Source: a phage
Assembly (NCBI GenBank): GCA_012401045.1
Contig: GCA_012401045.1_4704.2
Length of the DNA stretch: 64,000 nt
Direction: 5' to 3' (one strand)
The notes under the pieces are model-generated. The model saw only the letters and a list, made by a program, of their open reading frames with translations, made no database searches and was not told where the DNA came from. How positions within the stretch are numbered: the first letter of the stretch is position 1; each line of letters begins with the position of its first letter. Position numbers and translations under genes: made by a program. Of the stretch, positions 1-63,983 are shown in pieces.

Positions 1-37
1 CAGGCTCTCCAATGAAGGAGAGCCTGTGGCCGTCAGT

Positions 38-4117: not shown

Positions 4118-4134
4118 AAATATGCCGTTAAACG

Positions 4135-4764: not shown

Positions 4765-4780
4765 TCCCCGCTCCAATTAA

Positions 4781-6034: not shown

Positions 6035-6040
6035 AAGTTT

Positions 6041-7467: not shown

Positions 7468-7485
7468 CAGAAATCCTTATTTGTC

Positions 7486-9942: not shown

Positions 9943-10056
9943 GCTATGATAATCCTTCTTCGATACCTTCTGAACCACGGGTTCAGAATGCGAAGCTGAA
10001 GCCATACTTCAGCGTTATTTTCTATATCGTTATTTAAATCAGTAGGAGATTACAGC

Positions 10057-11145
10057 ATGAGCGACCTGGCAACAGACAATCGCACAAAAGGGAGTCAGCT
10101 AGCTCCAGACAACAACGTAAGCGTTTTCCGTATCTATGCCTTGGGTACTGTTGCTGCCGACTTTTCCAATAAAAGTCTGGAGGAAGATCCTAACCAGACG
10201 CTGGAGGTCTTTCTTGATGAGATGATGTCAGGCGCTGATGGGAAAGTTGAAGCGGCGGGAAGCGTTAAAGAAGTCAGTGCAACAGACGCTCAAGGGAACA
10301 GTTATACGGCGAAAGCGGCAACGACTACCAGTGTACAGTGTTACTGGTTACCCTTTGGTAGTAACCGGATGACAGCACCTAACTTGAGGAAAGGTCAGCG
10401 TGTGGTGGTTTGGCGTACCGCCGATGAAGAACAACTCTACTGGCAACCCAAAGGAGGGGATAGTGAGCTGATGACCATGGAATCGGTTATCCTCACCGTC
10501 AGCGCACGTCCTAGCGCCAAGAAGGACCGTAAATCGATTTCAACGGAAGACTGCTATTACCTAATGGTTGATACCTTCCTCAAGAAAGCGGTTATCGGCA
10601 CCAGCGCACAGCTTGGTGAAGTTACCCAAGTCTACATGGAACTTAATCTGGACGAGGGTTACCTACAGGTTGCGGACAGCGTTCATCAAAATCTGTTGTT
10701 ACTCCATTTTGTCGAGCATATGCTGCGTTATCAAAACCAGGACGACAGCATCATCGACGTGACAAAAAAGAACATCACGTTCCAGTGCGAGGATACGCTC
10801 AAAGCCATTGCTAAGAACGATATCCGAATGAAAGCAAAAAACATTTATACCGAATGTGAGAACTTCGAGCGTACCAGCAAAACAGAAAGCGTTACGAGTC
10901 AGAATGTTTCTTTGAAGTGTGATCGTTACACCGCGCAAGTATCAGGACAGACCACGTTTAAATGTCCGAATACGGTATTCACTGGAGCTGTAAGCTTCAC
11001 AGGTGAAGACGGAAACACGATGACGTTGAATGGGAACTTCGTACACATCGCAGGCTCTTGGCGTTCACCAACCGGAACAAACGTATACACCCACGATCAC
11101 GGTGGTGTAGATCGTGGTAGCGGTCGTACAGACCCGTTCCAATAA
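10057..11145 (+). CDS. hypothetical protein (362 aa), possibly virion or baseplate associated
   Basis: ATG with AGGAG SD; C-terminal Gly-rich region with HDH motif (THDHGGVDRGSG) loosely reminiscent of spike-tip metal sites; assignment speculative. Confidence 0.45.
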   Translation: MSDLATDNRTKGSQLAPDNNVSVFRIYALGTVAADFSNKSLEEDPNQTLEVFLDEMMSGADGKVEAAGSVKEVSATDAQGNSYTAKAATTTSVQCYWLPFGSNRMTAPNLRKGQRVVVWRTADEEQLYWQPKGGDSELMTMESVILTVSARPSAKKDRKSISTEDCYYLMVDTFLKKAVIGTSAQLGEVTQVYMELNLDEGYLQVADSVHQNLLLLHFVEHMLRYQNQDDSIIDVTKKNITFQCEDTLKAIAKNDIRMKAKNIYTECENFERTSKTESVTSQNVSLKCDRYTAQVSGQTTFKCPNTVFTGAVSFTGEDGNTMTLNGNFVHIAGSWRSPTGTNVYTHDHGGVDRGSGRTDPFQ

Positions 11146-11164
11146 AAAAGAAATGCTATACAAC

Positions 11165-11199
11165 CTCCTTCCCCGGCCTTGACGGCTAGGGAAGGAGGA
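11165..11199 (+). terminator. GC-rich hairpin terminator (variant of the conserved hairpin family)
   Basis: CCTCCTTCC...GGAAGGAGG stem followed by ATTATAGTTTATTTATT. Confidence 0.5.
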
Positions 11200-11213
11200 T
11201 TATAGTTTATTTA

Positions 11214-11603
11214 TTAACGCGTTGCATTCTGGATGATTTCTTTTCCGATCTTAACCAAAGCGGGTATCTGTACAGCGGTTGCGCCTCGATGACGAAACGC
11301 GGTCGTTAACGCGGTATCGATACTCACCGCACGTCCGTGAAGACGATCGAAATAGACTTGAGTGATTGCGGTAGCGTAATCCTTTCGCTGTTTCTTGGTT
11401 TGGCTCAACAGCGCCGCACTATGACTAACGATGAAGTAAGCGATTAAGAAGAACGCCGCTGACCGCGAACCAGGTAGAAAACCTTGTCGCTTAGGAAGCA
11501 TCTCACAATCGCGAACAGTATTATCGTTCGCGAGCTCTTCCATGTCAACACAGCATAATTTTGCATAGGTGTGGAGATAGTGGGTAAAAGTTGAATTTAA
11601 CAT
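11214..11603 (-). CDS. hypothetical small protein (129 aa), central hydrophobic segment
   Basis: ORF in array of small co-directional genes. Confidence 0.4.
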   Translation of the reverse strand: MLNSTFTHYLHTYAKLCCVDMEELANDNTVRDCEMLPKRQGFLPGSRSAAFFLIAYFIVSHSAALLSQTKKQRKDYATAITQVYFDRLHGRAVSIDTALTTAFRHRGATAVQIPALVKIGKEIIQNATR

Positions 11604-11708
11604 TTTCTTTCCTCGATTGCCATGAGTTCAATGTATAGCTTAAACGTCACAGAACGACGTATAACGGTTTGTTTTAATTTCTAAGGGGTTTCCTTATCTA
11701 AGATTGAA

Positions 11709-12071
11709 TTAAAGCGTTCTGAAGAGTTCTGTAGCGTTCTCGTCACGTAGACAGGCTTCGTTCAACAATTCAGCTAACAGCTTCGACCGAACTTCAACAA
11801 ATGTCCTGAGGCGATGCTCCCATTCTAAACGGATAGTGTACGTATTATCCAGGTTTTTGTAATCAACGACAGATGTGGAACAACGGGCTTCGCGTTTGTT
11901 CACAGCACTCCAAACATCACGGATAACCGTCACGCCTTTCTTGGTACACGTAAACGTTAAAATAAAGCGATTATTCGCTGCTTCTTCACGGACATGACTA
12001 AATTCACTTCGTAACGATGAGACTTTGATAAGTCGGTCAATAGCTAACGATAAACCGATACGTTGTTGCAT
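11709..12071 (-). CDS. hypothetical small protein (120 aa)
   Basis: ORF in array of small co-directional genes. Confidence 0.4.
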   Translation of the reverse strand: MQQRIGLSLAIDRLIKVSSLRSEFSHVREEAANNRFILTFTCTKKGVTVIRDVWSAVNKREARCSTSVVDYKNLDNTYTIRLEWEHRLRTFVEVRSKLLAELLNEACLRDENATELFRTL

Positions 12072-12072
12072 A

Positions 12073-12498
12073 TCAAATCCCCTCTTTCAGAATCTCATTA
12101 AGACCGTCAGTAATCCAGTCGAACTTCGTCTTAATCATGGCTGGGTTCAATCCATATACTTCCCACACAAGCTGGGGTTTATGTGTTCCATCGTCCAAAC
12201 AAAGCACATCGATTGAGAGTACCATACCACCCGTCAATTTCATGTTCTCGCAACTACGAAGATATGCGGATTCTAGCAATACTTTCCCTAACGCAGTGCA
12301 AGCAAATGTTAACCGGGAAGAGTACAGGTACGATGACGTTTTACAGTAGGTTGCTGATATCGGTTGAATATGTTTGCGGAGTTTGGCGTCTTCACGTAAA
12401 AGCAATAACGTGTGATGTAACCGCGTATGCTCGGTAACCGATGAGCTATACTCACCGATGCACTCTTCGGCGACTGATTTAGGCCATTTAATTTGCAT
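12073..12498 (-). CDS. hypothetical small protein (141 aa)
   Basis: ORF in array of small co-directional genes; 1-nt gap to next gene. Confidence 0.4.
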   Translation of the reverse strand: MQIKWPKSVAEECIGEYSSSVTEHTRLHHTLLLLREDAKLRKHIQPISATYCKTSSYLYSSRLTFACTALGKVLLESAYLRSCENMKLTGGMVLSIDVLCLDDGTHKPQLVWEVYGLNPAMIKTKFDWITDGLNEILKEGI

Positions 12499-12513
12499 GT
12501 TCGATTCCCCTTG

Positions 12514-12957
12514 TTAGCAGTACGTGTCGTTCAACACGCGACTCACGTCTAAATGTTCTAGTTGATGTATAATGCCATCAGCAATGCGTTGTAGATAGGC
12601 TGTCTTATCCAATACCGAATCCGATGAAATCGCCCAGTAGGCTTCTGATACCCGATATTCGCTACCTTCACCGAGACTGACCTGATTAACCAGCTTCACA
12701 TCAGCGTATCTCGTCCCACGTTCAGCGTACCAGTAGATGTTTTCCAGTACGTCCTTTCCCGTTTGTGAAAACACAAACCAAAGCTTCACGTCTAAGCCGG
12801 ATACTTCGACAACAACGCAGCGAAGATGATTCTCCAAAGGCGCAAAAGAGGCTAAACGTTCCAGCGCGTTTTGCAGCGTGGGGTGATTAAGCTTTTCTAG
12901 ATCTTTAGCGGGTTGTTTAGATGATAGCGCGATCGATTTACAGAATTTGGTTTCCAC
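12514..12957 (-). CDS. hypothetical small protein (147 aa)
   Basis: GTG start with AGAGGAA SD; 20-bp palindrome 30 nt upstream. Confidence 0.4.
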   Translation of the reverse strand: METKFCKSIALSSKQPAKDLEKLNHPTLQNALERLASFAPLENHLRCVVVEVSGLDVKLWFVFSQTGKDVLENIYWYAERGTRYADVKLVNQVSLGEGSEYRVSEAYWAISSDSVLDKTAYLQRIADGIIHQLEHLDVSRVLNDTYC

Positions 12958-12987
12958 GGTAGGTTCCTCTTGATAGATGGTAGTAAC

Positions 12988-13007
12988 GGGGATACCGCGG
13001 TATCCCC
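12988..13007. promoter_or_regulatory. perfect 20-bp palindrome GGGGATACCGCGGTATCCCC
   Basis: Located between two small minus-strand genes, about 30 nt upstream of the 12957 start; shares GGATACC half-site with palindrome at 26312. Confidence 0.3.
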
Positions 13008-13065
13008 TAAGTCTTTATAACACATTCCAAGCCATATTGGATACAGGCTCGTTACGTTCGATGAA

Positions 13066-13467
13066 TCACATCAGTTGTTCTTTAAGTTGGGTTAACTTAT
13101 TCGCAACGATGGTCTCAACATCGATGATCTTGTTCATGTTGTCGAGGGTATCCTGCCAGATGAAAATATCCACAGAACGGGTTCCGGTTAACCCGTTCTC
13201 AGGACGATGGTCGCGGGTCACGTAGCGTGGTCTCTGCGGGCTGGTTTGTAACTCGATCCAAAGCGCATCTAACGGACCGTGGTCCGTGACACCTAAGGCG
13301 AAGAATTCACCTCGTACGACCAGAACATCATCAGCCGTCCTGACACGGGTTGATCCTTCGTACACCAATTCCATCTTTGCTCGGCAGGCCGGGTTCCCGT
13401 TCCACGCCTGGACGGCATCGGCAAGGGCTATTGACGTTGCGGTGGTGTTCGTTTGATCATGTTGCAT
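13066..13467 (-). CDS. hypothetical small protein (133 aa)
   Basis: ORF in array of small co-directional genes. Confidence 0.4.
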   Translation of the reverse strand: MQHDQTNTTATSIALADAVQAWNGNPACRAKMELVYEGSTRVRTADDVLVVRGEFFALGVTDHGPLDALWIELQTSPQRPRYVTRDHRPENGLTGTRSVDIFIWQDTLDNMNKIIDVETIVANKLTQLKEQLM

Positions 13468-13543
13468 TCTAAGCTCCTGTAACGCTCTCTAAGCGTCGTT
13501 TTAAGTTAAGGTATGTTTCCCTTCCTTGGGTTAGGTTATTGCG

Positions 13544-13819
13544 TTACACGGCTTTACAGCTTGCGTAAACCACAACTGTTCCGTTGTTGATTGCCTCAAC
13601 AACATCCTGGGTCAGTTTGGTCGCGAGTTTATTATCCGCATTCGGTACGTAATAACCTTCTCCTGTTTCAGTGACTAGGCGGTAACGTACTAATCCCACT
13701 GTACGCTCGACGCGTATCACCTTTTCAAGTTTGTATTTGATGATCTTCGTCAGGCCGACTGTGTCTGACGCGTAGATTGCTTTATAAACCTTGTTCTTTG
13801 CTGTCGGTTTCATCAACAT
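13544..13819 (-). CDS. hypothetical small protein (91 aa)
   Basis: ORF in array of small co-directional genes. Confidence 0.35.
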   Translation of the reverse strand: MLMKPTAKNKVYKAIYASDTVGLTKIIKYKLEKVIRVERTVGLVRYRLVTETGEGYYVPNADNKLATKLTQDVVEAINNGTVVVYASCKAV

Positions 13820-13859
13820 GATTTCTGTTGTACTTTCCTTTTCGCTTGTTGGTGTTGGA

Positions 13860-14159
13860 TTAAGGTTTAGGTTCCGTTTTGTGTTGTGCGAGTAGTGTGT
13901 TGATCTGCTCCCGTTGTTCTTTTAAGTATGCGGGAAGCTGGTCTTCCCGTACCGTTCCGATTTCCAACGTGATGTACCAGCGTTGTTCGGAAGCCTGCCA
14001 TTGAAAACCGCTCTGTAACCGTAGGATGCTAGGATCACGTACCTTGCTTGCGCTGTAACGGTTGAACCAATCCAGGTATTCTGCTTTCCCTTCCTCGTCG
14101 GCAACGTAACGCTGCACGCTGTTCTTGCCTTTGTTCTCGTATCCCGTTGCACGTATCAT
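13860..14159 (-). CDS. hypothetical small protein (about 99 aa)
   Basis: Start taken at internal ATG 14159, which forms an ATGA overlap with the stop of the upstream gene (track start 14213). Confidence 0.4.
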   Translation of the reverse strand: MIRATGYENKGKNSVQRYVADEEGKAEYLDWFNRYSASKVRDPSILRLQSGFQWQASEQRWYITLEIGTVREDQLPAYLKEQREQINTLLAQHKTEPKP

Positions 14160-43266: not shown

Positions 43267-43365
43267 CTGACTTATGTATCACGGTGCCGGATGAATGTCC
43301 GGTGCAATGAAACCATCCGCAACGTTGTCATCAAGAATATCATCCAACGAAGCAGCTACGGTAGT

Positions 43366-45588
43366 TCAGTTAGTCTGAACCGGCAGCTTGATGTTTTCAG
43401 TGTAGACCTTACGCAGGTTCACAACGTTAATCAGACCCAGCAGCGGGCAGTTGTTAACGAAGCGGCAGCGCGGCTGAACCATGGTTTCTTTAGAAACCTG
43501 ACCGTTACGGGTAACCTGAGCAACAGATACCAGTTCCGGTACGTACAGGAACATACCGAAGGTCAGCGGATCCGGAGAACCCTGGATACCACGAGACAGG
43601 GTCACGAAGATCTTATCGCGCAGCATGACGTTCGGGTTATCTACAACCACGAAGTTGAAGCTTACACCGACGGTACGGAAATCGCCATCGGTCTGCAGGA
43701 ACTGCGGGATGTAGTTGTCAGTTGCTACTACGCAACGCGGTTTCTCATCGGCGTTGGAAGACAGCAGCTGCAGAGCTGGCTGATAACCAGACTCGGAGTA
43801 CATGCGGTATGCCATCTCACGAATCACGTTCATGATCGCAGCAGACACTTCAGCACGACGTTCTGCAGTGGTGGTACCCTGAACAGATTTCTCCAGGTCC
43901 AGATTGATTTCTTCGAACCACGGACGGATCAGGTAACGACCGAAACCTTCGATCTGGATGTCACCGAACTGACGGAAGCGAGAGGTCGCAACCGCTTTCA
44001 GTGCGTCTTTGTAGCTGAACAGTTTCTCAACCATCAGGTTGTCGAAACGTGCGTTAGCAGCTTGGATCAGAACGTCCAGGTCAGCAGCGTTTTCTTCCCA
44101 ATCCAGCGGACGAGGAATGGAGAACGGAGCCAGCAGGCCGATTGCGTAACGTTCTTGCTTCATGTTGAAGTCAAGGTGCTTACCGCGTTCACGACGGTTG
44201 CTGTTGTTACGGCGGATACGCAGTTCGTAACCAACCAGTTTGAAGCTCAGGTCTTCAGCCAGTTGTTTGAACTCTTCGCTCTTACGCGGTTGTTCGATGT
44301 TGTCCTGATCAACCAGGCGATACAGTTCAGCGTTAGCGCCGTTAACACGCAGACCCGCTTTCTCTACGTTGGAAGAACCGTAAACTTCGATCGCCAGCTG
44401 AGCAGCAGATTTCGCATCGATGATGTCCTGCAGCGCTTCGGCTTTCGCACCTTTAACGTCTTTGGTGTTCTCATCAACGAAGATGGAGTGGGTGTCGAAC
44501 GCCAGGGTCATTTTGCGGAAGTCGCCTTCCAGGGATTTCTGGAAACCGTTGGTGATCAGACCAGATACGTCGAACGGTACGTAAGAGGTTTTGCTGTGCT
44601 TGGTAGATTTGATTTCCACCAGGATTTTGGTCAGCGTGATCTGGGCGTCCAGCGCGTCGGTGTTGTCGCTATAACCGTTAGCCAGGATGCTATCGTCTTC
44701 AGCGATACCGATCATGTCGATCAGTTTATCAACAGCCAGGTAAGACGTTTTATAAGTTACGCCTTTAATTTCGATGTCGCGCGGAGCAACGATAGCTTTG
44801 TCAACGAAGTACTGCGCGTTAGCATCGTCAGCACGATAGATCGGATGCAGATCGGTCACGTCGTTGGACAGAACGTCGTTGTACATGAACGCATCCAGCA
44901 GCGGACGACGTACCCAATCAGCCGGAGTACCGTCGGCGTTACGACGCAGGTGGTTGAACACCAGCGGACGACGGAAAGATACGTCGTAACCGATCTGGTT
45001 CGGAGCCAGAACGATGGTGTTGTACAGTTCGTTACCCATGCGGCTCAGACGAGAAGCCTTCACGTTGAACACAACGGAGTACGGCATCATGTCACGCAGT
45101 TCTTTCTGGTCGTAGGACAGCTGAACCAGTTCTTCAGATTCGCAACCGCAGGAATCAGCAGCCATCATGACGAAGTTAGAGCTGTCAACTTCACGGCCAG
45201 ACGGAGTGGTGCTGATGTTCATGGAACGTGCTTGTTTAGCATATTCCACCGGGTTACCATGAGCCAGCATGATCAGTGCTGCTGCACGAGCCTGCTGTGC
45301 GTTCATGGTGAACAGCTGTTCTTCAATACGCTGCTTCTCTTCCGGAGTGGTGGTTTCGAAGCCCAGCATGGACAGAACCGGTTCTTCTGCTTTACGGATG
45401 TCGCTGCTGAAGCTCTTAACATCCATTTCGTTAACCAGTTTGTCCATGGATTTGAAATCAACCTTAGAAGCAGATTCCATAGACAGGAAGGTGTTCTCCA
45501 GACCTTTGTCTGCTGGTTTGCTACCATTAGCGGTCAGGAACTGGCGAGTGGCCGCGACCTGTTGGCTAAGAAGGGTTTTATCATTCAT
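43366..45588 (-). CDS. major capsid protein candidate (740 aa)
   Basis: Extreme highly-expressed-gene codon bias, capsid-like size for a jumbo phage, AAGGA SD, own upstream AT-rich region; could alternatively be another very abundant virion protein such as sheath. Confidence 0.5.
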   Translation of the reverse strand: MNDKTLLSQQVAATRQFLTANGSKPADKGLENTFLSMESASKVDFKSMDKLVNEMDVKSFSSDIRKAEEPVLSMLGFETTTPEEKQRIEEQLFTMNAQQARAAALIMLAHGNPVEYAKQARSMNISTTPSGREVDSSNFVMMAADSCGCESEELVQLSYDQKELRDMMPYSVVFNVKASRLSRMGNELYNTIVLAPNQIGYDVSFRRPLVFNHLRRNADGTPADWVRRPLLDAFMYNDVLSNDVTDLHPIYRADDANAQYFVDKAIVAPRDIEIKGVTYKTSYLAVDKLIDMIGIAEDDSILANGYSDNTDALDAQITLTKILVEIKSTKHSKTSYVPFDVSGLITNGFQKSLEGDFRKMTLAFDTHSIFVDENTKDVKGAKAEALQDIIDAKSAAQLAIEVYGSSNVEKAGLRVNGANAELYRLVDQDNIEQPRKSEEFKQLAEDLSFKLVGYELRIRRNNSNRRERGKHLDFNMKQERYAIGLLAPFSIPRPLDWEENAADLDVLIQAANARFDNLMVEKLFSYKDALKAVATSRFRQFGDIQIEGFGRYLIRPWFEEINLDLEKSVQGTTTAERRAEVSAAIMNVIREMAYRMYSESGYQPALQLLSSNADEKPRCVVATDNYIPQFLQTDGDFRTVGVSFNFVVVDNPNVMLRDKIFVTLSRGIQGSPDPLTFGMFLYVPELVSVAQVTRNGQVSKETMVQPRCRFVNNCPLLGLINVVNLRKVYTENIKLPVQTN

Positions 45589-45737
45589 TGAAAGTATCCT
45601 TTACAGAATTAACTTATATAAGTCGGTCGATAGACCATAGCGTACACGCGTGCATGCGCCACTATAGTATCAGTAAACACTTACCGTTATTGAGGTCGTG
45701 ATACAACACTAAAAATGCCGCATAACTTTTCCCTACG

Positions 45738-49535: not shown

Positions 49536-50438
49536 TTACTTAGCCTTTGAGTTATACGGACTAACATGTTGTTGTACTCGTTGGATTGTATCGTAGTACG
49601 GGTTAAGTTGATTGAACATGTTGTTGTGTGGGTGATAGCCATATGGCGCATTTTGCCTTGTTGGTGAGAAACCTTGTTGAGAAGGACGGTTTGAATTAAC
49701 CGCGAGTACGTAGTAAACCAAATTTTGGCGGTCGAACGTTCCTTCGTTTTTGAAGGTGTCGGCGTAGGCGCTTACCGCTGGAGCGAGCCTATCACCATCG
49801 GTTGTAATGATTGTGCCATCGGGATAAACTTCCCGAACGACGCACCATGTTCCGATGAGAACATCTTTGGGTGATGTATTACCGTATCCGGTTGTAACGG
49901 TAAGGTAAGTATCGAACCCTTCAGAACAACAAGGATGACGATAGATGGGTCCTGTCATTTCCAGTCTATCGGTGTCACCGCATTTCTCTATTGAGAGCGA
50001 TGATGTGTCGGTTTTGAAATTGTCAAATTCTTTCTTTAAGTCGATTACGGGTTCTTTCGTATAGTACTTCTTGATTGCTTTGACGTAAAGATCGGGAACG
50101 GTTGTCAGCAATCCGTTATACCTGATTCTCAGGTTTTCGAGTAATCCAAAGATGCTCGCGCATGCCTGTTCGCGAGGTTTTGTAAGATAAGAGATCCCCC
50201 CAGGAACGCTGGGATCTTTGAGAAAGAAGATTGCGTTATTGTCGTTGTGCGATGCGTTGAAGAAAACGATTGATTCGATATATACGGAGCATAGGCTGTC
50301 GTTGGCGTCGTCAGATAACACCCAGATGCACTCATCGGTCGTCTTGTTTAAAAGTTCTGTTTTGTCGACCAAACGTTGTTTCATTGCGAGGAAATGTGCC
50401 TGTTGTTCAGCGGATAATTCACGATAAATGGTGGTCAT
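49536..50438 (-). CDS. hypothetical protein (300 aa), paralog of 50524-51306
   Basis: Shared motif IY-x-HP-x-C ... YLT-x-T-x-G ... REVYPDG-x-I; ATG with AAGGAG SD. Confidence 0.5.
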   Translation of the reverse strand: MTTIYRELSAEQQAHFLAMKQRLVDKTELLNKTTDECIWVLSDDANDSLCSVYIESIVFFNASHNDNNAIFFLKDPSVPGGISYLTKPREQACASIFGLLENLRIRYNGLLTTVPDLYVKAIKKYYTKEPVIDLKKEFDNFKTDTSSLSIEKCGDTDRLEMTGPIYRHPCCSEGFDTYLTVTTGYGNTSPKDVLIGTWCVVREVYPDGTIITTDGDRLAPAVSAYADTFKNEGTFDRQNLVYYVLAVNSNRPSQQGFSPTRQNAPYGYHPHNNMFNQLNPYYDTIQRVQQHVSPYNSKAK

Positions 50439-50523: not shown

Positions 50524-51306
50524 TTAATCGGGATCGGCGTAGAAATGGTGAGGATAGCCGGAGTACGATCCCGCGTTACCGGTTATGGATTCTTTCTGGG
50601 AATCGACGACGAGTGCATAGAACTGTCGGGAATTTGTTAGCGTTGAGAAATAAGAGGAAAGGACTTTTTCATTCAACGCATCGCAAGGTAGACAGGTGCG
50701 ACCGCAAAACGTCACGATACGGCCGTCAGGATAGATCTCACGAATCATTCTCCACTCGCCAATATCGACTGGTGATGGCGCTGCTACACCACCTGTTATC
50801 GTTAAGTAACGATCGTACGTGGTATGGCATTCAGGATGAACGTAAATCGGTTGGGCATCAATACTATCGTTTTCTGTTTGATCTTTATTCACGTATACCT
50901 CAAGGTAGATTGTTGGTAACCCGGTTAGAACGCCAGTGTCACGACGTTTTTTGGTAATCCGGGGACGGATATTATCGAGCACGCCTTCCAGTTTTTCTGC
51001 GACTTCGTCAGCCGGTAATATATACCCGTATGTTGGTTCTGGGTCATCACCGTGGCTAAATAAGATACGACAGTCGTTTTTATTAAATTCTATATCTTCA
51101 GGTGGGAAGATGATGACGCGAACCGTATGGCGTTCTGCGATATAAAATCCTTCAGGCCCCTCAGTTTTGGTAAGTGTAAAGGACCAGGATGAATGATCTT
51201 CAAGTGACGTGCCTGCCAGGAAAAAGTCCGCCCGAATTGGTGCGTTCCATTTCGCGATCATATTGGCGTGACCAATAACGCCTAATTTTTGATAAATATC
51301 TGTCAT
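50524..51306 (-). CDS. hypothetical protein (260 aa), paralog of 49536-50438
   Basis: Shared Cys/His-containing motif; ATG with GAGGA SD; promoter-like motif copy 4 upstream. Confidence 0.5.
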   Translation of the reverse strand: MTDIYQKLGVIGHANMIAKWNAPIRADFFLAGTSLEDHSSWSFTLTKTEGPEGFYIAERHTVRVIIFPPEDIEFNKNDCRILFSHGDDPEPTYGYILPADEVAEKLEGVLDNIRPRITKKRRDTGVLTGLPTIYLEVYVNKDQTENDSIDAQPIYVHPECHTTYDRYLTITGGVAAPSPVDIGEWRMIREIYPDGRIVTFCGRTCLPCDALNEKVLSSYFSTLTNSRQFYALVVDSQKESITGNAGSYSGYPHHFYADPD

Positions 51307-56760: not shown

Positions 56761-59700
56761 TTACTTGTAGGCACCGCAATGGGCTTTGATGAGGAAAAGC
56801 ACCGCTTGCATCGGTTTATTGAACTGTTGCCATAACGTCAATGCCGGATGGAACAACCAATCTTCCAGGCCGAGAACAATACCGTAGTTAACGACATTAT
56901 TAACATCGTTCTCAACGTTGAGTTCGCTATCCAGGAATTTATCGATTGAACGCAGGGTCTGCATGGCGTTGTCAGCAATAAGCCAAGCTTCATGTGCTTC
57001 ACGAGCCGCACGCAGCACTGCCTCCAGTTCGCTGATAGTAGCTACCGGTAATTCCTCACTGGTGAGGTCGTCAGAAACCGTAAACTGGCGATTGATACCG
57101 GTGTAGATCCACTGCATCAGTTTCGCTGCTTCCTCGTTCGGGTTGTTACGCGTTGTCGCATAAGTCGCGCTCACCTTCACGATGTGCGTTTCACCAAGAT
57201 ACGCTTTGGACCCAACACCTTTACGATCGCTGTCTTTCCACGGTTGTACGGTAGCGACCATGAGCTTATCCCATTTCTGAATAGGAATACGCTTCAGACC
57301 AACAACCGATCCAGCGGATGTTTCGGACTGGTTGCTCTTCCGCACGTCGCTGAGCTCACGATCGATCGCAACGATTAATTCACGCGTCATGTTACCAAGC
57401 ATTTTGATTTCACCCAACGCAGCGATGAGCTTCTTCACATCGGTAACAGGTTCACCACCGATGGTAAGATGACGGATGAAACGTTTCAGAATAATCCGTT
57501 CTGCTGCTGGGTTACCGCGCCGCGCTTTGGCCAACGCTTGCTGTGTTTCGGCGAACAGCTTATCCCATGGAGCCGTAGCGGCGGTATAGTAACGATGGTT
57601 GGTTTCAATCCAGTTACCGATACGGTTGACCGCGGTCTTAACGGTATCCATGAATCCTTCCATCGCAATTTCGGTAGCTTCGACGTTACCCTGGAAGTTA
57701 TCAGGACCGATCTCGCGTGCCGCTACCAGAATACCTTCCACCGCGCTCACCGCGTGGCGACCGATAGCCAGATTTCGCTGCGCTTCTTCAGCACGCTCAA
57801 CGAATTCCACCACCGCAGGATCGTCAACGATTTCCACCTCAGCAACAACACGAGTACCAGCATCGCCTTCCAGTGTTTCGATGGTGACAACAGGATCGTT
57901 TTCACCAGCAACATCCTGGTATTCTTCCTGTTTGAGATCGCCGTTATCAGCCGCTGCGACAGCGGTGAGTATACGAATGGTAACATCGCCGAGTTCTTTT
58001 GCAGCGAATCCGTAAACGGTGCATGCGGTCGTTGCAAAGTTCATCAGGGTACGTGTGCGCTGCGTGACGTAGCGTGCGCCCGATTCGTTTTCCACTTTGT
58101 CTAGATCGCGGAGTAACTGCTCAGCCGTCTCCTGAAGTTGAGTAGCTGCTTTCAGGAGGTCTTCGTCAAACAGTTTTGTTGATGCATCGATCAGCATTTC
58201 AACGCTAACGTTGGGCGGTACAGCATCATCCTGCTGTTTCATGGCGCTAAGTTCGTAACGGAACTCACGAATGCCGTTTAACGCGTCGTCGATAGAATAT
58301 CCGAACGCTTTCACGCCCGCCATTCCAAGAGCTGCTTTCATTTCAGCTGGATGCTGAACTTGCTCGCCTTCCTTGCTGTTCTTTAACTCATCGAAATATT
58401 TCTTCGACGCGTCCGCAATACGTTTACTGTCTTTAACCGCATTTACGATCTTATCGACAGATTTCGAGTCGTTTGCGAGCAGCGTATCCAGTTTATTCCA
58501 CTCAACGTCAACCTTCTTGGTGTCGCTCGGCGGAGGAAGCAGTTTCATCACTGGTGCTGTGCGTTGTTCTTTGGTCAGCTTGTTGGCCTTCTCTTCGATT
58601 TTTTTCTTATTAACACCAAAGAGATTTTTCAAACGCGCCACGAGGGCTTTTAAGAACTTCGCGACCGCTTCGTAAACCGATTTCAGAATCTGTTTAAAGC
58701 GACCCGGCTGCTTTTCCCCGTCTTCCAGATTGAGATCGCTGTTCAGTGCGACATCAAGCTGTTTGTACGATTCCATGATGTATTCGTCTTTGATTTCAGG
58801 ACGAATCTCGAAGCTTTCCATCGGACCTTCAGCCGGACGGAATTCCATTTTCAGTTCGCCTTGCAGGGTAGGGTCGACAATGGCGATCGCTTCACCCTGA
58901 CCATCAGCGTTAAAGCGTTCAGCGTAACGAGTACGGCGAACAATAACACTCTTACCCCCGTCAAGACGACGTACCACCATGGTGCCAGGAATGTACGGTT
59001 GTTCTGTTTCAATGACGGTTACATCTGTTTCACCCTCACCGAGAATAACAGATGCACGCTGTTCAACAACAGGAACATCTAATACACCACGGGCTTCCAG
59101 CTCTTGATGAATTTCGAACGACTCTTGTTTCAGATCTTCATCTTCTTCGTTTTCGTCGTCTTCATCATCGCCACCTTTGGTGTTTTCATCACCCTTGGTG
59201 GTTGTGTCGTCGGTGGCACCAGCGTCAGCGTCGGTGTTAGCAGGTTCTTCGGACGCAGGTTCGGTGGTGTTGTCCTCCGTGGACGACCCGTCAGTGTTAT
59301 CGACATCAACATCACCTTGCAGTTCTGTTTCCTGAGCAACTGCTTCGGCTTTCTGCTCGCCGGTATTGCCGTCATTAGCGTCAACGACAGGTTGTTCGTC
59401 AGCGACGGTATCTTCAACCTTTTCTACTTTCTCCACGACACGTTTAATCACGGTGACTTTGATGGGTTCTTCCGTCGTTTTGGTTTCTGGCGTCGCCTCG
59501 GCTACCTCAGCTGCTGTTTCAGCAACAGGTTCTGCTTTTTCCGGTTCGACGACATTGCCTTTAACACCTTCGGTGGTTTCTGCAGGTTGCGTCGCCTGTT
59601 CGATTTGTGCCGGATTGGTTGGATCGATGGCGTTAGCCGCATCCTGAATCTTGTTCTTCAGGTTGTCGCGGTCAGCGTTAACGGTCGGGTCGTTGGTCAC

Positions 59701-60138
59701 TTTCGGTGCCGGTGTTTCGGTCGGTGCGTTTGCCGGATACGGGTTCTTCGGCTCTTCGCCAGGTGCGGTCGGTACCGCGATCAGAACGAACGGTTGAACA
59801 TCGTTACCGTCTTCCATGGTTACGCCACCGTTGCTCGGTGTGAAACGAATTCGTAAACTACCATCAATAGGACGGGTCACAATAACAGCACGTACGACAT
59901 CCTCACCGTTCTCATCCGTGCTACGAATCACACGAACAGCGTCATCAACGGTAGCCCCTTCCTCGAGCGTATCTGATTCGATCGTCGCTTCGATGCTGTC
60001 TGGCCGTGCCGCTGTAGGTAATGCGATCACTTGCTCTTCTTTATCAGTAGAAAGCGTTGCTTTGACTTCGATAGGTGTATCGCCGCTTTCCAGGTTAAGA
60101 TGCGACTTACGCATCAGATCAGCTAACGATTTTTTCAT
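56761..60138 (-). CDS. giant acidic virion-type protein (1125 aa) with internal repeats and D/E/T-rich low-complexity region
   Basis: Central DDEDDENEEDED tract, T/E/P-rich linker, duplicated about 35-aa segment (VVRAVIVTRPIDGSLRIRF / MVVRRLDGGKSVIVRRTRY); candidate head internal or ejection protein by analogy. Confidence 0.5.
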   Translation of the reverse strand: MKKSLADLMRKSHLNLESGDTPIEVKATLSTDKEEQVIALPTAARPDSIEATIESDTLEEGATVDDAVRVIRSTDENGEDVVRAVIVTRPIDGSLRIRFTPSNGGVTMEDGNDVQPFVLIAVPTAPGEEPKNPYPANAPTETPAPKVTNDPTVNADRDNLKNKIQDAANAIDPTNPAQIEQATQPAETTEGVKGNVVEPEKAEPVAETAAEVAEATPETKTTEEPIKVTVIKRVVEKVEKVEDTVADEQPVVDANDGNTGEQKAEAVAQETELQGDVDVDNTDGSSTEDNTTEPASEEPANTDADAGATDDTTTKGDENTKGGDDEDDENEEDEDLKQESFEIHQELEARGVLDVPVVEQRASVILGEGETDVTVIETEQPYIPGTMVVRRLDGGKSVIVRRTRYAERFNADGQGEAIAIVDPTLQGELKMEFRPAEGPMESFEIRPEIKDEYIMESYKQLDVALNSDLNLEDGEKQPGRFKQILKSVYEAVAKFLKALVARLKNLFGVNKKKIEEKANKLTKEQRTAPVMKLLPPPSDTKKVDVEWNKLDTLLANDSKSVDKIVNAVKDSKRIADASKKYFDELKNSKEGEQVQHPAEMKAALGMAGVKAFGYSIDDALNGIREFRYELSAMKQQDDAVPPNVSVEMLIDASTKLFDEDLLKAATQLQETAEQLLRDLDKVENESGARYVTQRTRTLMNFATTACTVYGFAAKELGDVTIRILTAVAAADNGDLKQEEYQDVAGENDPVVTIETLEGDAGTRVVAEVEIVDDPAVVEFVERAEEAQRNLAIGRHAVSAVEGILVAAREIGPDNFQGNVEATEIAMEGFMDTVKTAVNRIGNWIETNHRYYTAATAPWDKLFAETQQALAKARRGNPAAERIILKRFIRHLTIGGEPVTDVKKLIAALGEIKMLGNMTRELIVAIDRELSDVRKSNQSETSAGSVVGLKRIPIQKWDKLMVATVQPWKDSDRKGVGSKAYLGETHIVKVSATYATTRNNPNEEAAKLMQWIYTGINRQFTVSDDLTSEELPVATISELEAVLRAAREAHEAWLIADNAMQTLRSIDKFLDSELNVENDVNNVVNYGIVLGLEDWLFHPALTLWQQFNKPMQAVLFLIKAHCGAYK

Positions 60139-60153
60139 AAAGCGTTATTCCTC

Positions 60154-61260
60154 TTAAAAGTAATATTTCAGCGCCTCGCGAGAGACATCAAGCATAGCCG
60201 CTGTTGAATTCGTAAAGAACTCGGCATAGCCCACAAGCGGCACCTTGATCCACGCGGTATACGCTGTAAGGTATCGAGAAAGGGCTACCATAGCATCATC
60301 AGAAGCAGTAGTAACTGACAACTGACCTTGTTGACGATAAACGTCGTTAAGTTTTGCTTGTAGATTCCCTGCGATTTCGAGTAACTCGTTGGCGTACTTT
60401 TTACGATGGTAACTAACCAGTAAATCAACACCCGTATTTACCGACTCGAGTAGCACACCAACTTGTTCTAATGTTGGCATTGTAACCACCATATCCCGTT
60501 CAACGGACGGTACATCCTGGACTTCAAACCGTGCGGATTGAATAGCGAGGGACTGTTGAATTGAACCAGAACCTGAGGTGGTAACCTGATCGAGTCGTAG
60601 CGTACGGTTACCCAGTAACGTTACATTGACGAGTCTCGATTCGTTCAGCGTACTGTAGACTTTATGCAATAACGTATACGCGTCACGGTTAATCACATCG
60701 ATTAATGCGGTATCCGTCTGTTTTAAGATAATGTCGAGCGCTCTATCTAACGTATTAGCGAACTGTTTGAAATCATCACGGAACGACGAAGACAAGAGAT
60801 ATTCAGCGATTGCCAAATTCTGTTTGTATAACGTATTCCCAGTTGTGAAGTCGAATCCAAAACTGTTCCCATACCGTAGGTGCGGTGCCAGCGTTGACGA
60901 AGCTTCGAAGCTTTGCGCGATGGGTTTACGACCAACGGCTTTTGTGTAGTGACGGCGGATGTTGCTGAGTTCGAGCTGTAGTGCGCGACTACGATCGATA
61001 AACCGGGCGATAAACGCAGTGATGTTCCGCAACGTTGTCCAGATTGCATCGATGATGGCTTTGATGATTTTCATCGCAAGCTGATTGTACGATTCCATCG
61101 TGAGGAGATCAGCACTTTCCGTGGTATAACTGGTTGTCGGAATACCGCCCGCTTGCTGATAAATGAGCTGGTGAATTTGTCGTTGCGTTGCTGTCTCTGG
61201 CACAGGTAATTTTTTTAACAAGCTTAACGCTTGAATCTGTCCATCATAGGTCTGCAGCAT
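60154..61260 (-). CDS. hypothetical protein (about 368 aa), head-gene cluster
   Basis: ATG 61260 with GAGGAA SD (track start 61302 overlaps upstream gene by 59 nt). Confidence 0.5.
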   Translation of the reverse strand: MLQTYDGQIQALSLLKKLPVPETATQRQIHQLIYQQAGGIPTTSYTTESADLLTMESYNQLAMKIIKAIIDAIWTTLRNITAFIARFIDRSRALQLELSNIRRHYTKAVGRKPIAQSFEASSTLAPHLRYGNSFGFDFTTGNTLYKQNLAIAEYLLSSSFRDDFKQFANTLDRALDIILKQTDTALIDVINRDAYTLLHKVYSTLNESRLVNVTLLGNRTLRLDQVTTSGSGSIQQSLAIQSARFEVQDVPSVERDMVVTMPTLEQVGVLLESVNTGVDLLVSYHRKKYANELLEIAGNLQAKLNDVYRQQGQLSVTTASDDAMVALSRYLTAYTAWIKVPLVGYAEFFTNSTAAMLDVSREALKYYF

Positions 61261-62545
61261 TGCTGGTTTCCTCAAGTTCGAGATGCGCGTCAAGATAATC
61301 ATTAAGACCGTCGATGACGTCGCAGACAGTTAACAGGAATCGGGCAAAAGCAACCGCCTGGAAGCCGACGACGTTACGCGCGATACCCACACGTTGAACG
61401 ATAGCGGATGCGGCGGTATCGTTGTTGTCCATCTGTTGTAGCAGGCGCTCGTAAGGTTGAATCCATTCGTCCTGATCGGCAAGGCTTGCTTCAAGACAAC
61501 GTTTAAATTCCAACTGTCGTAGCGTAGACCATAACGTACTTAATGCGTTGATGATCGCGTTGGTTCCGTCGATAACATCGTTTAACGGCAAGAAACGGAA
61601 TCCGTCTTTTGCTGATTGGAAAGGTACGGCTTCCCACACAACGCTGAATTGCGTTCCTGTTGCGTCTTCGATGTTGTGTAATTTAAGATAGGAAGCACCA
61701 ACAGGTACGTCAACGACTAGATCGTCTGTTCCGGTAGGCGTTAACGGCTTCTCGCATAACGCATCGTTGATGACTTCAAGGATATTCTCCCAACAGGCTT
61801 CGTTTTCTGCAGCGATACCTTCTTTGTTATCCGCTGATGGTGCTTTTAGTAGCCGCATTAATAACGGATCGAGTTGACGATGCCACGCTGCGAGGATTCC
61901 TGTGTTCGTTACGATGTTTTCTGCGGTTTGTCGTAAATCAGCAATACTGCTTACCGCACCGCCTTTCGGATGAAGATAACGCCAGTTGTAGGGAAAGTTC
62001 TCCCAGAACGCGTTATCTTCATCGACGTCGTATTCGGAAATATTTTTCAACGCAACCGCTTTCTTTAATAACGGCTTCACCTGACGAACGAATCGACGAT
62101 AACAACGATTACAGATATCGATCGCGTAACGGTATAACTCGTTCATGTAAAGCCATAACGCTCGGGTTGCTTCTTTTGCGGTCTTGTCAAAACTTTCCAT
62201 GTTCAAGCTCATCCCGCTGGAAGTTTCCTCTTCCAGACCCTCGATGATTTGGTTTGGGTCCATCCCCATCCCGGCTGCTGCGGTTGTTGCGATATGTTTG
62301 ATGGTGTTAATATCGCGTTCTTCAACTTCAGCCATGTTTGGGACAATATCCAGCCTGAGTTTATTTAATGTTTGAAGGTGTTGTTCACCTTCTTTCATCA
62401 CCGTGTTTGTTTCGTCGATTGAGTGAAACTGATTCTCAATATTACTGGCATCGAGAACGTTGCCAGCGATACCGAACGATTCTACAGGTTCATCATCAAT
62501 CCCTTGAAATAACGATGTCATGGGTTGTTGTAACACGTTTTCCAT
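61244..62545 (-). CDS. hypothetical protein (433 aa), paralog of 62694-63983
   Basis: Shared N-terminal SLF and I-x-x-IA-T/S-x-AA-x-x-GM segments with the upstream gene; ATG with AGGAG SD. Confidence 0.5.
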   Translation of the reverse strand: MENVLQQPMTSLFQGIDDEPVESFGIAGNVLDASNIENQFHSIDETNTVMKEGEQHLQTLNKLRLDIVPNMAEVEERDINTIKHIATTAAAGMGMDPNQIIEGLEEETSSGMSLNMESFDKTAKEATRALWLYMNELYRYAIDICNRCYRRFVRQVKPLLKKAVALKNISEYDVDEDNAFWENFPYNWRYLHPKGGAVSSIADLRQTAENIVTNTGILAAWHRQLDPLLMRLLKAPSADNKEGIAAENEACWENILEVINDALCEKPLTPTGTDDLVVDVPVGASYLKLHNIEDATGTQFSVVWEAVPFQSAKDGFRFLPLNDVIDGTNAIINALSTLWSTLRQLEFKRCLEASLADQDEWIQPYERLLQQMDNNDTAASAIVQRVGIARNVVGFQAVAFARFLLTVCDVIDGLNDYLDAHLELEETSNAADL

Positions 62546-62652
62546 TTGGGACTCCTACGTAGGAAAATCTTGGCGGGTGATCATGTCCGCCATTTACCTT
62601 CTGAACCGTTGATTCAGAAGTCAAAAGATAACCGGATACCAACGCCATAAAC

Positions 62653-62684
62653 CTTCCTCCAACCCAACAGGGAAGGAGGAAGGG
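62653..62684 (-). terminator. conserved GC-rich hairpin family copy (loop variant AACA)
   Basis: CCTTCCTCC-AACCC-AACA-GGGAA-GGAGGAAGG; minus strand followed by TTTATGGCG. Confidence 0.5.
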
Positions 62685-62693
62685 ATATGGTGA

Positions 62694-63983
62694 TTATGCT
62701 TTTTCGGTCGCTGCGTTGAAGTATTTCGCAGCAGCAAATACAGCATCCGCATATTGACGTATCGAAGCGCGAAGAATCTTGGTTGACAATACTGTACTTA
62801 AACGTGCCATTTCAGAAACCGCGCTTACATAAGGACGGATGGTTTCACGATCGGCTTCAGGCAGCTTGTCAAGCATATCACCCCACTTCGTTTTGATTTT
62901 CATGCCGTTGAGTTTAGCGGTACGCTCCACAGAACCAGCCAAAGCTTCAACCATGTGGAAATAAGAGGAGTCTATCGTACGGAACACGTTAAGATAGGAA
63001 GTCAATGCACCTTTCAGTTCGTTATCGTCTTTGAAAATGTTTGCGTTCTCTATCTCACCGGTCGCCGTCGTCTCGGTTTCAACCCGAATATTTTTCACCA
63101 ACGTGTAGGCTTTAATCGCATCACGTTCGTTTTCAACAGCATCGAGACCTTGAATAACGAAACGTTTCCCACCGCTCTCTGGAAAAACAACTTTATTCAG
63201 AGCCGATTTGATCGCAAGCAGGTATTTGTCTAAGATAGACGGAAGCAGTGTGAGGTCAGTGAGGTCTGCGACCTTTTTATTGATATCAGCCACTTGCTTA
63301 AACAATGAATCCACCCCGCTTGCGCTTGCAGCGAGTTGTTCGATATGCTTGCTTGCAAACACGGCATTCGCTGATTTCGCATTAGGGAACATATTGACCA
63401 TATTTCCAGTGGGCTTATCCAACTGTTTGATATGGCGCTCACCTTTATTCACAGCGGTTGCGATGTTGACAATTTTGTTGTATGCGACAACCAGGTTCTT
63501 GAACAACATCTGGAACAGTTTGAACAGCTGCTCAGCGATATTCGCAATGATTACCCAGACCGCATATAACGCTTGTGCTGCGCGTTCTTTAAAACCTTCC
63601 AGTACAATAGCTTGCCCTTCCACCAAACGATCGTCGGCTTGGAACATGTCTTCATCGGACATCCCCAGGTTAGCTGCTGACGTCGAAGCAATCTGACGGA
63701 TAAGTGCGATGTCGCTGGCGCGAGCTTCAGGGATCGTAGGTGCGATCATGTACGCGGTATCTTCCAGCGTTGCTGAGGTACGCACCGCAATTTCAGCCAG
63801 TTCGCTGGATTCATCGATCGTCTCGTCGGTACGTCGAATCACCAACTCAACTTCGTCCTCTTCGATTTCTGCGTTAGGATCGTGTTGCTCCGCTGGAATT
63901 GCTGCAAGAAGATCTTCGGCGCTGAGCAATGCGAGTTCGAATGCGTTTTTATTGACGTTATCAAAAAGAGAAATACGTGCCAT
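62694..63983 (-). CDS. hypothetical protein (429 aa), paralog of 61244-62545
   Basis: ATG with AAGGAA SD; similar size and shared motifs with neighbour. Confidence 0.5.
   Translation of the reverse strand: MARISLFDNVNKNAFELALLSAEDLLAAIPAEQHDPNAEIEEDEVELVIRRTDETIDESSELAEIAVRTSATLEDTAYMIAPTIPEARASDIALIRQIASTSAANLGMSDEDMFQADDRLVEGQAIVLEGFKERAAQALYAVWVIIANIAEQLFKLFQMLFKNLVVAYNKIVNIATAVNKGERHIKQLDKPTGNMVNMFPNAKSANAVFASKHIEQLAASASGVDSLFKQVADINKKVADLTDLTLLPSILDKYLLAIKSALNKVVFPESGGKRFVIQGLDAVENERDAIKAYTLVKNIRVETETTATGEIENANIFKDDNELKGALTSYLNVFRTIDSSYFHMVEALAGSVERTAKLNGMKIKTKWGDMLDKLPEADRETIRPYVSAVSEMARLSTVLSTKILRASIRQYADAVFAAAKYFNAATEKA

Follow-up and report, generated by a model that had tools for sequence, protein, structure and literature searches.

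Four genes of a Goslar-like jumbo phage that probably encode PF12699-type internal head proteins, and a candidate prohead-protease motif

The window analyzed here is a 64,000-nucleotide stretch of phage DNA (GenBank assembly GCA_012401045.1, contig GCA_012401045.1_4704.2). Judged from its gene order, it is the first 64 kb of a genome like that of Escherichia phage vB_EcoM_Goslar, a nucleus-forming jumbo phage of E. coli (Chimalliviridae; accessions MK327938 / NC_048170). At its far end, in positions 56761–63983 of the minus strand, lie genes for proteins of 429, 433, 368 and 1125 amino acids (aa). This region is 92.6% identical to Goslar in nucleotide sequence (96.2% for window positions 40–64 kb), and the four genes have one-to-one Goslar orthologues in the same order and orientation: gp56 (79.3% aa identity), gp55 (97.5%), gp54 (97.3%) and gp53 (93.2%), respectively. 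The full open reading frame (ORF) of the third gene, 60154–61302, would encode 382 aa. We adopted the start at 61260, which gives 368 aa, because a GAGGA ribosome-binding site lies upstream of it and it agrees with the Goslar annotation.

We interpret the four genes as encoding phiKZ-type internal head proteins (Pfam family PF12699) whose precursors would be cut by the prohead protease and whose products would be packaged and ejected, and we assign this reading a probability of roughly 80%. It is favored because synteny, PF12699 matches, predicted fold and published mass spectrometry of Goslar virions agree. The ORFs, family membership (from sequence or from predicted fold), synteny, motif enrichment and mosaic divergence were computed for this study; virion presence and copy numbers come from the literature on the orthologues. 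A preliminary description of this DNA had likened the proteins to the inner-body or ejection proteins of phiKZ-like phages, and these same four lines of evidence bear it out.

Homologues of phiKZ genes flank the cluster on both sides. On one flank, window ORFs w530, w438 and w455 correspond to phiKZ gp98 (1e-29), gp99 (9e-32) and gp101 (7e-40); on the other, which in Goslar lies beyond the window end, the head genes gp61, gp60 and gp59 correspond to phiKZ gp89, gp90 and gp91. The cluster thus lies where phiKZ has its internal-head-protein operon, gp92–97. In Goslar, gp57 and gp58 continue this operon beyond the window end. The same cluster is present in a distant 259-kb metagenomic relative (L003, positions 4126–14128), as genes for proteins of 449, 461, 98, 453, 387 and 1375 aa followed by neck genes. 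Precomputed PF12699 matches fall on the 449- and 387-aa genes, the latter being the syntenic counterpart of the 368-aa gene. Where Goslar has both gp56 and gp57, L003 has a single gene of this kind (461 aa), plus the extra 98-aa gene; the single copy suggests that the gp56/gp57 pair arose by a lineage-specific duplication, with loss in L003 as the alternative.

PF12699 (phiKZ_IP, phiKZ-like phage internal head proteins) has a Pfam gathering cut-off of 27 bits, and the cluster relates to it in several ways: (i) residues 787–1125 of the 1125-aa protein, scanned alone, pass the cut-off marginally (27.6 bits, E 2.2e-6, profile 75–319), and the protein scanned at full length gives no match, possibly owing to its acidic low-complexity region; (ii) the 368-aa protein scores 21.8 bits (E 1.3e-4), below the cut-off, but the alignment is co-linear and nearly full-length (residues 53–359 against profile 89–384), and it is likely a divergent member; (iii) the 433-aa protein can be assigned to the family transitively only, through its orthologue P0185 (phmmer E 3.5e-27, 29% identity), which scores 28.6 bits over profile 44–147; and (iv) alleles P0168 and P0172 of the 429-aa protein score 12–13 bits. 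A phmmer search with the 433-aa protein against 1.84 billion representatives returned its own cluster and P0185 only. Beyond the window, Goslar gp58 scores 82.4 bits and gp57 21.3 bits, and both BLASTP (2e-19) and hhalign (98%) connect gp57 with the 429-aa protein.

Fold prediction leads to the same family. The core of the 429-aa protein is modeled by AlphaFold2 with a predicted local distance difference test score (pLDDT) of 72–94, and a Foldseek search of BFVD with this model gave 57 matches at E ≤ 1e-3 and probability 1.00, all to jumbo-phage internal-head or virion proteins. The top match is annotated 'Internal head protein', and others are virion proteins of PhiEaH1, Psa21, Noxifer, PhiPA3, 201phi2-1 and SL2. 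The comparison of folds covers the 429-aa protein only; the full-length model of the gp53 orthologue has a pLDDT of 37 and is too poor to use. No known effector, enzyme or defence-related domain was matched by any of the four proteins, and no solved structural relative was found past generic helical bundles.

Within the cluster, the 433- and 429-aa proteins are paralogs. BLASTP aligns residues 41–166, the N-terminal third only, at 22% identity (E 6e-9), and the family profiles align with 97% probability in hhalign. The preliminary description had proposed this paralogy and had singled out a shared segment, I-x-x-IA-[TS]-x-AA-x-x-GM. The segment is real: in our alignment of the two families (A3), I95, I98, A99, T101, A103, A104, G107 and M108 are invariant, and the stretch of P0185 equivalent to IALIRQIASTSAANLGM falls inside the part that matches PF12699. 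The 368-aa protein had been judged similar to the other two in size only, and it indeed has no BLASTP similarity to either (E > 0.5).

Direct evidence for packaging comes from Goslar, where the orthologues of all four proteins were detected in virions by liquid chromatography–tandem mass spectrometry. Copy numbers were estimated at ∼330 for gp53, ∼70 for gp54, ∼50 for gp55, ∼60 for gp56, ∼50 for gp57 and ∼2150 for gp58 (bioRxiv 10.64898/2026.04.21.720040), with an error of about ±50% and on proteins 79–97% identical to those studied here. In the same work gp53 and gp58 were described as having a predicted PF12699 domain, gp54–57 as sharing the same fold in AlphaFold models, and gp58 as injected. 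In phiKZ, gp92, gp93, gp95 and gp97 are injected and associate with the early-infection vesicle, and gp90 has also been reported as ejected (bioRxiv 10.1101/2024.03.24.586471).

In the mechanism we propose, each protein would be built of three parts, namely a short N-terminal leader, a pro or anchor region and a helix-rich core of ∼300 aa that follows a conserved motif described below. The precursors would join the prohead through their N-terminal regions; an anchoring role is suggested because residues 14–84 of phiKZ gp93 line the inner capsid wall, cleavage freeing the helical domain (PMC11297242). An S80-type prohead protease, the orthologue of Goslar gp212 encoded outside the window, would then cut the precursors, and the products would remain in the DNA-filled head in tens to hundreds of copies. 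Ejection with the genome into the early-infection vesicle would follow, on the analogy of Goslar gp58 and phiKZ gp92, gp93, gp95 and gp97. We infer the cleavage positions, the ejection of these four proteins and any activity in the host.

The abundance of S/A-x-E tripeptides, offered earlier as a sign of proteolytic processing, carries no weight: [SAG]xE counts are at shuffle expectation in all four proteins (26 observed versus 24.1 expected in the 1125-aa protein, P 0.36; 3 versus 6.9 in the 433-aa protein). Because these tripeptides are not enriched, we examined the conserved sequence at the start of the PF12699-type core instead. Here the four proteins share x-[M/L/V/Q]-E-[S/G]-[F/Y], present as NME117↓SF (433-aa), VLE129↓GF (429-aa), TME56↓SY (368-aa) and AME827↓GF (1125-aa), where arrows mark predicted cuts. 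Additional copies occur in the gp53 orthologue (KQE339↓SF, PME441↓SF and IME456↓SY) and in the leader of the 433-aa protein (PVE22↓SF). The cores predicted from these sites are nearly uniform in length, with 316 aa in the 433-aa protein, 300 aa in the 429-aa protein, 312 aa in the 368-aa protein and 298 aa in the gp53 orthologue. The string [MLQV]E[SG][FY] occurs eight times in the four proteins (2,355 aa) versus twice in ∼17,000 aa of the remaining window ORFs, a post hoc count in that the motif was defined after inspecting these same proteins.

A looser string, [MLQVTFI]E[SG][FY], is 8-fold enriched in Goslar gp53 and gp55–58 (gp54 not counted) in the first 224 kb of the genome (Fisher 3e-6). 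Because the window count is post hoc, we sought independent checks. First, the motif lies at the same position in proteins outside its definition, as VVE122↓GF in gp57, FE149↓SF in gp58, where TE110↓SY is a second copy, and NME↓GF in P0185. Second, its residues are conserved: E129 and F131 are invariant over the gp55 and gp56 families (alignment A3), and M826, E827 and G828 are invariant even among gp53 homologues of 30% identity. Third, the Goslar genome (237 kb; first 224 kb searched) contains four matches to an extended form, L-[VKT]-Q-[EL]-[SG]-[FY], versus 0.07 expected, at the capsid boundary and in gp53, gp64 (virion peptide seen) and gp65 (vertex complex).

At the maturation boundary of the capsid protein the motif stands in an L-for-E variant. 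The N-terminal 157 residues of the Goslar capsid protein are missing from the cryo-electron microscopy (cryoEM) map, and EELVQL157↓SYDQK at this point matches the phiKZ cut GLE163↓NYNEK by manual comparison, no computed alignment being involved. The putative protease is Goslar gp212 (203033–203839; 'head maturation protease' in RefSeq), which matches phiKZ gp175 (BLASTP 9e-25) and is present at ∼159 copies per virion (bioRxiv 10.64898/2026.04.21.720040). Its sole motif match, TME197↓GF, aligns with phiKZ ALE↓NY, about where gp245 of phage SPN3US cleaves itself (AQE-203). Taken together, x-[M/L/Q/V]-E↓[S/G]-[F/Y] is probably the prohead-protease site of this lineage.

Copies of the motif were also noted in other Goslar proteins: gp64 (72031–74823) has DLVQE↓GF and KME↓GY; the vertex-complex protein gp65 (74883–77687) has ELVQE119↓GF, KFE↓SF and PTME↓SF; and gp209 (205366–206889), an abundant virion protein, has PIVE15↓GF only 15 residues from its N-terminus. 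These three proteins and gp212 are further predicted substrates.

Several observations weigh against the reading of these proteins as cleaved, packaged and ejected PF12699 members. Neither the 433-aa protein, even at E ≤ 10, nor the 429-aa protein matches PF12699 itself, and hhalign with shallow profiles connects just gp55, gp56 and gp57. The evidence for ejection concerns gp58 and the phiKZ proteins rather than these four. For Goslar, neither the micrographs nor the C1 map nor the symmetry-expanded classes showed an inner body, and the 2,888-chain model lacks these proteins, which are listed as unmodelled virion proteins, with none on the capsid wall (bioRxiv 10.64898/2026.04.21.720040). We prefer 'packaged, probably ejected internal head proteins' to the 'inner body' of the preliminary description because Goslar cryoEM shows no ordered body.

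Further difficulties concern cleavage, beginning with the post hoc definition of the motif. P1 is Leu and not Glu at the capsid site and in the 387-aa gp54-like protein of L003. The Goslar peptide table, in evidence restricted to peptides starting with A–E, provides a positive control, as it contains a peptide of the mature capsid protein but none from the propeptide. The same table contains AVIVTRPIDGSLR from beta module 1 of gp53 (residues 84–96) and AEPVAETAAAAAEVTPETK from its acidic linker (residues 202–220), the latter with an area of 79,000 and among the stronger gp53 peptides. Both segments must be considered retained in Goslar virions since their peptides are detected; overall coverage of gp53 was 63% (bioRxiv 10.64898/2026.04.21.720040). 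The first residue of the semi-tryptic peptide EIRPEIKDEYIMESYK is E444, two positions past the predicted S442 (PMESF443 precedes it), and the peptide spans IME456↓SY uncut. A weak peptide (area 541) crosses AME827↓GF, and low-intensity peptides derive from the N-terminal regions of gp58 (residues 55–72) and gp55 (residues 52–62). Because the direct peptide evidence is mixed, we treat the cleavage positions as predicted.

The cluster shares with phiKZ gp92–gp97, gp162 and gp163 (PF12699) its operon position, a helix-rich core of ∼300 aa and multiple paralogs. Leaders ending in L-E occur in both (KLSLE13↓S in phiKZ gp93, NLE17↓S in the gp53 orthologue), and in both the largest protein is encoded last in the operon (gp97 with 816 aa; 1125 aa here). 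The two systems differ in that BLAST similarity is almost nil (best for KZ96 against the gp53 C-terminus, E 0.005), in that the motif here has M/L/Q/V at P2 and S/G-F/Y at P1′–P2′ without S/A/G at P3, and in that an inner body is invisible in Goslar. An acidic linker or exchangeable cassette was not identified in phiKZ gp92–97, whose similarity is too low to align; no comparison of architectures was made.

SPN3US offers a parallel for processing. Its PF12699 E proteins gp53 and gp54 mature at AQE↓GW and ARE↓SLW, with removal of propeptides of ∼125–137 aa C-terminal to Glu (PMC10052503). The mature protein is ∼30 kDa, extra cuts are made in the propeptide, a leader site lies near residue 12 and gp245 cleaves itself near residue 203 (PMC10052503, PMC5694885). 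The propeptide/core layout predicted here matches that of SPN3US gp53/gp54 (paralog family A), and the predicted core sizes fit. However, the SPN3US paralogs are two in number, both very abundant, and the site there is a strict A-x-E, whereas here there are six paralogs, one of them dominant (gp58, outside the window), and another motif.

A functional likeness extends to phage T4. T4 IPI–III and Alt carry a capsid-targeting leader that is removed by the gp21 protease after Glu; they are kept in the head alongside the DNA and pass into the host on ejection. The N-terminal targeting leader, the prohead-protease cut after Glu and the storage and ejection would be common to both systems, but no sequence or fold relationship was found, and the small, basic T4 proteins contrast with the large, helical, acidic ones described here. 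The analogy between T4 internal proteins and jumbo-phage ejection proteins has been stated before (PMC10052503).

The gp53 orthologue appears to be a multi-module protein comprising a leader, a beta module, an acidic linker, a second beta module, an exchangeable helical cassette and the PF12699 core (Table 1). It is acidic and T/E/P-rich, as first described (pI 4.61, net charge −77, low-complexity stretch at residues 121–334), with 36 D/E versus 5 K/R in residues 251–350. The linker contains conserved islands, NPYPANAPTE and VDANDGNTGE, amid indel-rich hypervariable stretches, and no PF12699 signal was found in profile scans of the helical cassette. The internal duplication that had been claimed for this protein could not be demonstrated: self-BLASTP gives no off-diagonal match, and Tandem Repeats Finder on the DNA returns trivial tandem repeats only. 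What recurs is a 7-residue junction, DLKQESF (residues 335–341) and DLKQEEY (residues 734–740), and the two beta-rich modules are weakly alike (Smith–Waterman z 2.7, P 0.016; hhalign P 0.002, 13% probability). Cleavage at the second junction is less certain because its P1′ residue is E and not S/G.

More distant gp53 homologues (1089–1670 aa) have each helical module bounded by DLKQE[SG][FY], ELVQLSF or DLKTEGF. In this lineage the cassette is found in one to three tandem copies, and the modules within P0142 and within P0146 are mutually homologous (BLASTP E 5e-10 to 6e-40). The L003 homologue (1375 aa) has two helical cassettes, and others of this sister lineage (1089–1670 aa) have one or three; the order of the cassette and the second beta module is inverted there relative to the window protein. 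Since its modules are joined by DLKQE[S/E][F/Y], of the same type as the capsid maturation site, gp53 may be processed like a polyprotein.

Table 1. Predicted features of the cluster and of the capsid maturation site, in window coordinates
Feature	Residues	Position	Strand	Basis or remark
429-aa protein (Goslar gp56 orthologue)		62694–63983	−	ORF and orthology
429-aa, N-terminal pro/anchor region	1–129	63597–63983	−	Predicted
429-aa, conserved segment IALIRQIASTSAANLGM (I-x-x-IA-[TS]-x-AA-x-x-GM)	92–108	63660–63710	−	Alignment A3
429-aa, helical core (300 aa)	130–429	62697–63596	−	Predicted, starts after VLE129↓GF
433-aa protein (Goslar gp55 orthologue)		61244–62545	−	ORF and orthology
433-aa, leader	1–22		−	Ends PVE22↓SF
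433-aa, pro region	23–117		−	Holds motif INTIKHIATTAAAGMGM at 62261–62311
433-aa, predicted core (316 aa)	118–433	61247–62194	−	After NME117↓SF
368-aa protein (Goslar gp54 orthologue)		60154–61260	−	ORF and orthology
368-aa, predicted core (312 aa)	57–368	60157–61092	−	After predicted site TME56↓SY
1125-aa protein (Goslar gp53 orthologue)		56761–60138	−	Modular, acidic; ORF and orthology
1125-aa, N-terminal part: leader ending NLE17↓SG, then beta-rich module 1 (residues 36–120)		59779–60138	−	Low-confidence AlphaFold2 strands
1125-aa, acidic T/E/P/A/D-rich low-complexity linker	121–334	59137–59778	−	Composition
1125-aa, junction 1 DLKQE339↓SF	335–341	59116–59136	−	Candidate prohead-protease site; near-invariant in alignment A1
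1125-aa, beta-rich module 2	342–456	58771–59115	−	Ending PME441↓SF and IME456↓SY
1125-aa, helical module, hypervariable cassette	457–733	57940–58770	−	AlphaFold2 pLDDT 70–86 for residues 545–725
1125-aa, junction 2 DLKQE738-EY	734–740	57919–57939	−	Junction variant
1125-aa, C-terminal PF12699 core (298 aa)	828–1125	56764–57657	−	After AME827↓GF
Major capsid protein, maturation boundary EELVQL157↓SY	153–159	45112–45132	−	Sequence

Two parts of the cluster stand apart in their divergence from Goslar. Neighboring structural proteins are 98–100% identical, and their genes have a ratio of nonsynonymous to synonymous divergence (dN/dS) of 0.00–0.06 and dS of 0.04–0.21, the small gp52 being an outlier at 0.30. 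Residues 501–700 of gp53 have a dS of 0.80 against ∼0.12 in the flanks, and in gp56 dS is saturated over residues 151–400, with dN/dS ∼0.2; its N-terminal region (residues 1–150) is much more conserved than the core (dN 0.006 versus 0.24). Conservation across 108 close gp53 homologues is 93–100% in the leader, beta modules, junctions and PF12699 core (98–100% for the N-terminal part), and it drops to ∼60% in the linker (residues 201–225 and 276–325, with indels) and in the cassette (residues 576–700). Alleles of gp56 that are 67–98% identical, as well as gp53 cassette variants, circulate among otherwise near-identical phages. By these measures the middle of gp53 and the gp56 core (residues 151–429) appear to be recombination-swapped hypervariable cassettes. 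The combination of dN/dS ∼0.2 with saturated dS indicates an exchange of old alleles under purifying selection, and positive selection is not demonstrable. The window cluster thus differs from its published Goslar orthologues, which were described as virion proteins with PF12699 domain or fold and measured copy numbers (bioRxiv 10.64898/2026.04.21.720040), in carrying anciently diverged alleles (dS 0.8 to saturated) in these segments.

This pattern allows a tentative proposal, to which we give somewhat less than even weight as a whole: that gp53-type polyproteins are a conserved chassis bearing a recombination-swapped cassette as variable host payload, and that protease specificity has shifted in the Goslar lineage to hydrophobic P4, M/Q/L/V at P2, E/L at P1, S/G at P1′ and F/Y at P2′, from S/A/G-x-E in phiKZ and A-x-E in SPN3US. 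A rival reading, in which the gp53 cassette and the gp56 core would act after injection as effectors of host takeover or anti-defence, with a diversity owed to an arms race with the host and not to a generic packaging role, is unlikely, though worth keeping in mind. It could account for the 79% identity of gp56 and the high divergence of gp53 residues 501–700 beside neighbors at 98–100%, for the circulating alleles and for the one to three cassette copies of the distant lineage, and host membrane and metabolic proteins are recovered in pull-downs with phiKZ gp93 (bioRxiv 10.1101/2024.03.24.586471). The signature of purifying selection on old alleles and the failure to match known effector, enzyme or defence-related domains, with only generic helical bundles as structural relatives, argue the other way.

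It is improbable that the proteins are mainly structural or assembly components retained in the capsid, their N-termini lining the inner wall or the vertices as scaffold or cement rather than cargo. In the phiKZ capsid structure, N-terminal fragments of PF12699 proteins (gp93 residues 14–84 and gp162) do lie on the inner surface (PMC11297242), and the strong conservation of gp56 residues 1–150 and the N-terminal-region peptides in Goslar virions would suit such a role. The copies of gp54–57 (∼50–70) are near the 55–60 of one-per-asymmetric-unit capsid proteins (Table S4 of the Goslar study), hinting at a stoichiometric capsid-bound fraction, but these estimates carry the ±50% error noted above. 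The 2,888-chain model contains none of the proteins, and phiKZ gp92, gp93, gp95 and gp97 as well as Goslar gp58 are injected. The two roles are also compatible in that the core could be ejected and an N-terminal fragment remain behind.

Finally, that the acidic stretch of gp53 is a DNA-repelling spacer or propeptide, degraded and expelled at maturation like T4 scaffold fragments, is very improbable: its extreme acidity, rapid indel evolution and flanking junction motifs would fit, but peptides from the linker and from the upstream beta module in Goslar virions, at 63% coverage of gp53, largely refute it.

The reading as packaged, probably ejected internal head proteins is correct in outline but already published for the Goslar orthologues, and the candidate protease motif and the gp53 cassette architecture are modest additions. 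Our analysis re-identifies the Goslar cluster; the role of the packaged, injected PF12699 paralogs of chimalliviruses has been called a key unsolved mystery (bioRxiv 10.64898/2026.04.21.720040). Useful by-products are a set of explicit cleavage predictions and a motif that may be specific to the protease of this lineage, both testable, and a map of constant parts (leader, anchor segment, junctions and PF12699 core) versus exchangeable parts of gp53 and gp56 that can guide tagging, truncation and swaps.

Directly downstream of the cluster are orthologues of Goslar gp52, gp51 (tail terminator), gp50 (tail adaptor, with Pfam head–tail joining domains), gp49 and gp48 (spike cap). The cluster had been placed upstream of a capsid-like gene. 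A major capsid gene does lie downstream (43366–45588, minus strand; 740 aa, 99.7% identical to the Goslar protein), but it is the neck genes that adjoin the cluster, the capsid gene being 11 kb further on. An unusually long ATG-to-stop ORF of 766 aa (43291–45591, plus strand) runs antisense over the entire capsid gene and exceeds its 740 aa; it is probably an artefact of codon bias.

Between the 429- and 433-aa genes, the 148-nt intergenic segment 62546–62693 holds two hairpins on the minus strand, CCTTCCTCC...GGAGGAAGG-TTT and TGGCGGACATGATCACCCGCCA, the second of which matches a terminator annotated in Goslar. Because of these hairpins, the cluster may form two transcription units, gp58–56 and gp55–53.

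Between the capsid gene and the cluster, two adjacent ORFs of 300 aa (49536–50438) and 260 aa (50524–51306), both on the minus strand, are paralogous (BLASTP E 2e-19, 25% identity) and have no match among Goslar gp41–gp61, the genes to which the search was confined. In Goslar this position is occupied by the small genes gp44, gp45 and gp47, and the window exceeds it in length by ∼1.6 kb.

More than 100 distinct Goslar-like variants of the 1125-, 433- and 429-aa proteins were found on contigs of ∼234–250 kb. The assemblies that contain them are labelled Salmonella enterica, E. coli (including O157), Shigella sonnei and Enterobacter hormaechei, which suggests that Goslar-like phages are often co-sequenced with enterobacterial isolates, perhaps reflecting a carrier state or contamination.

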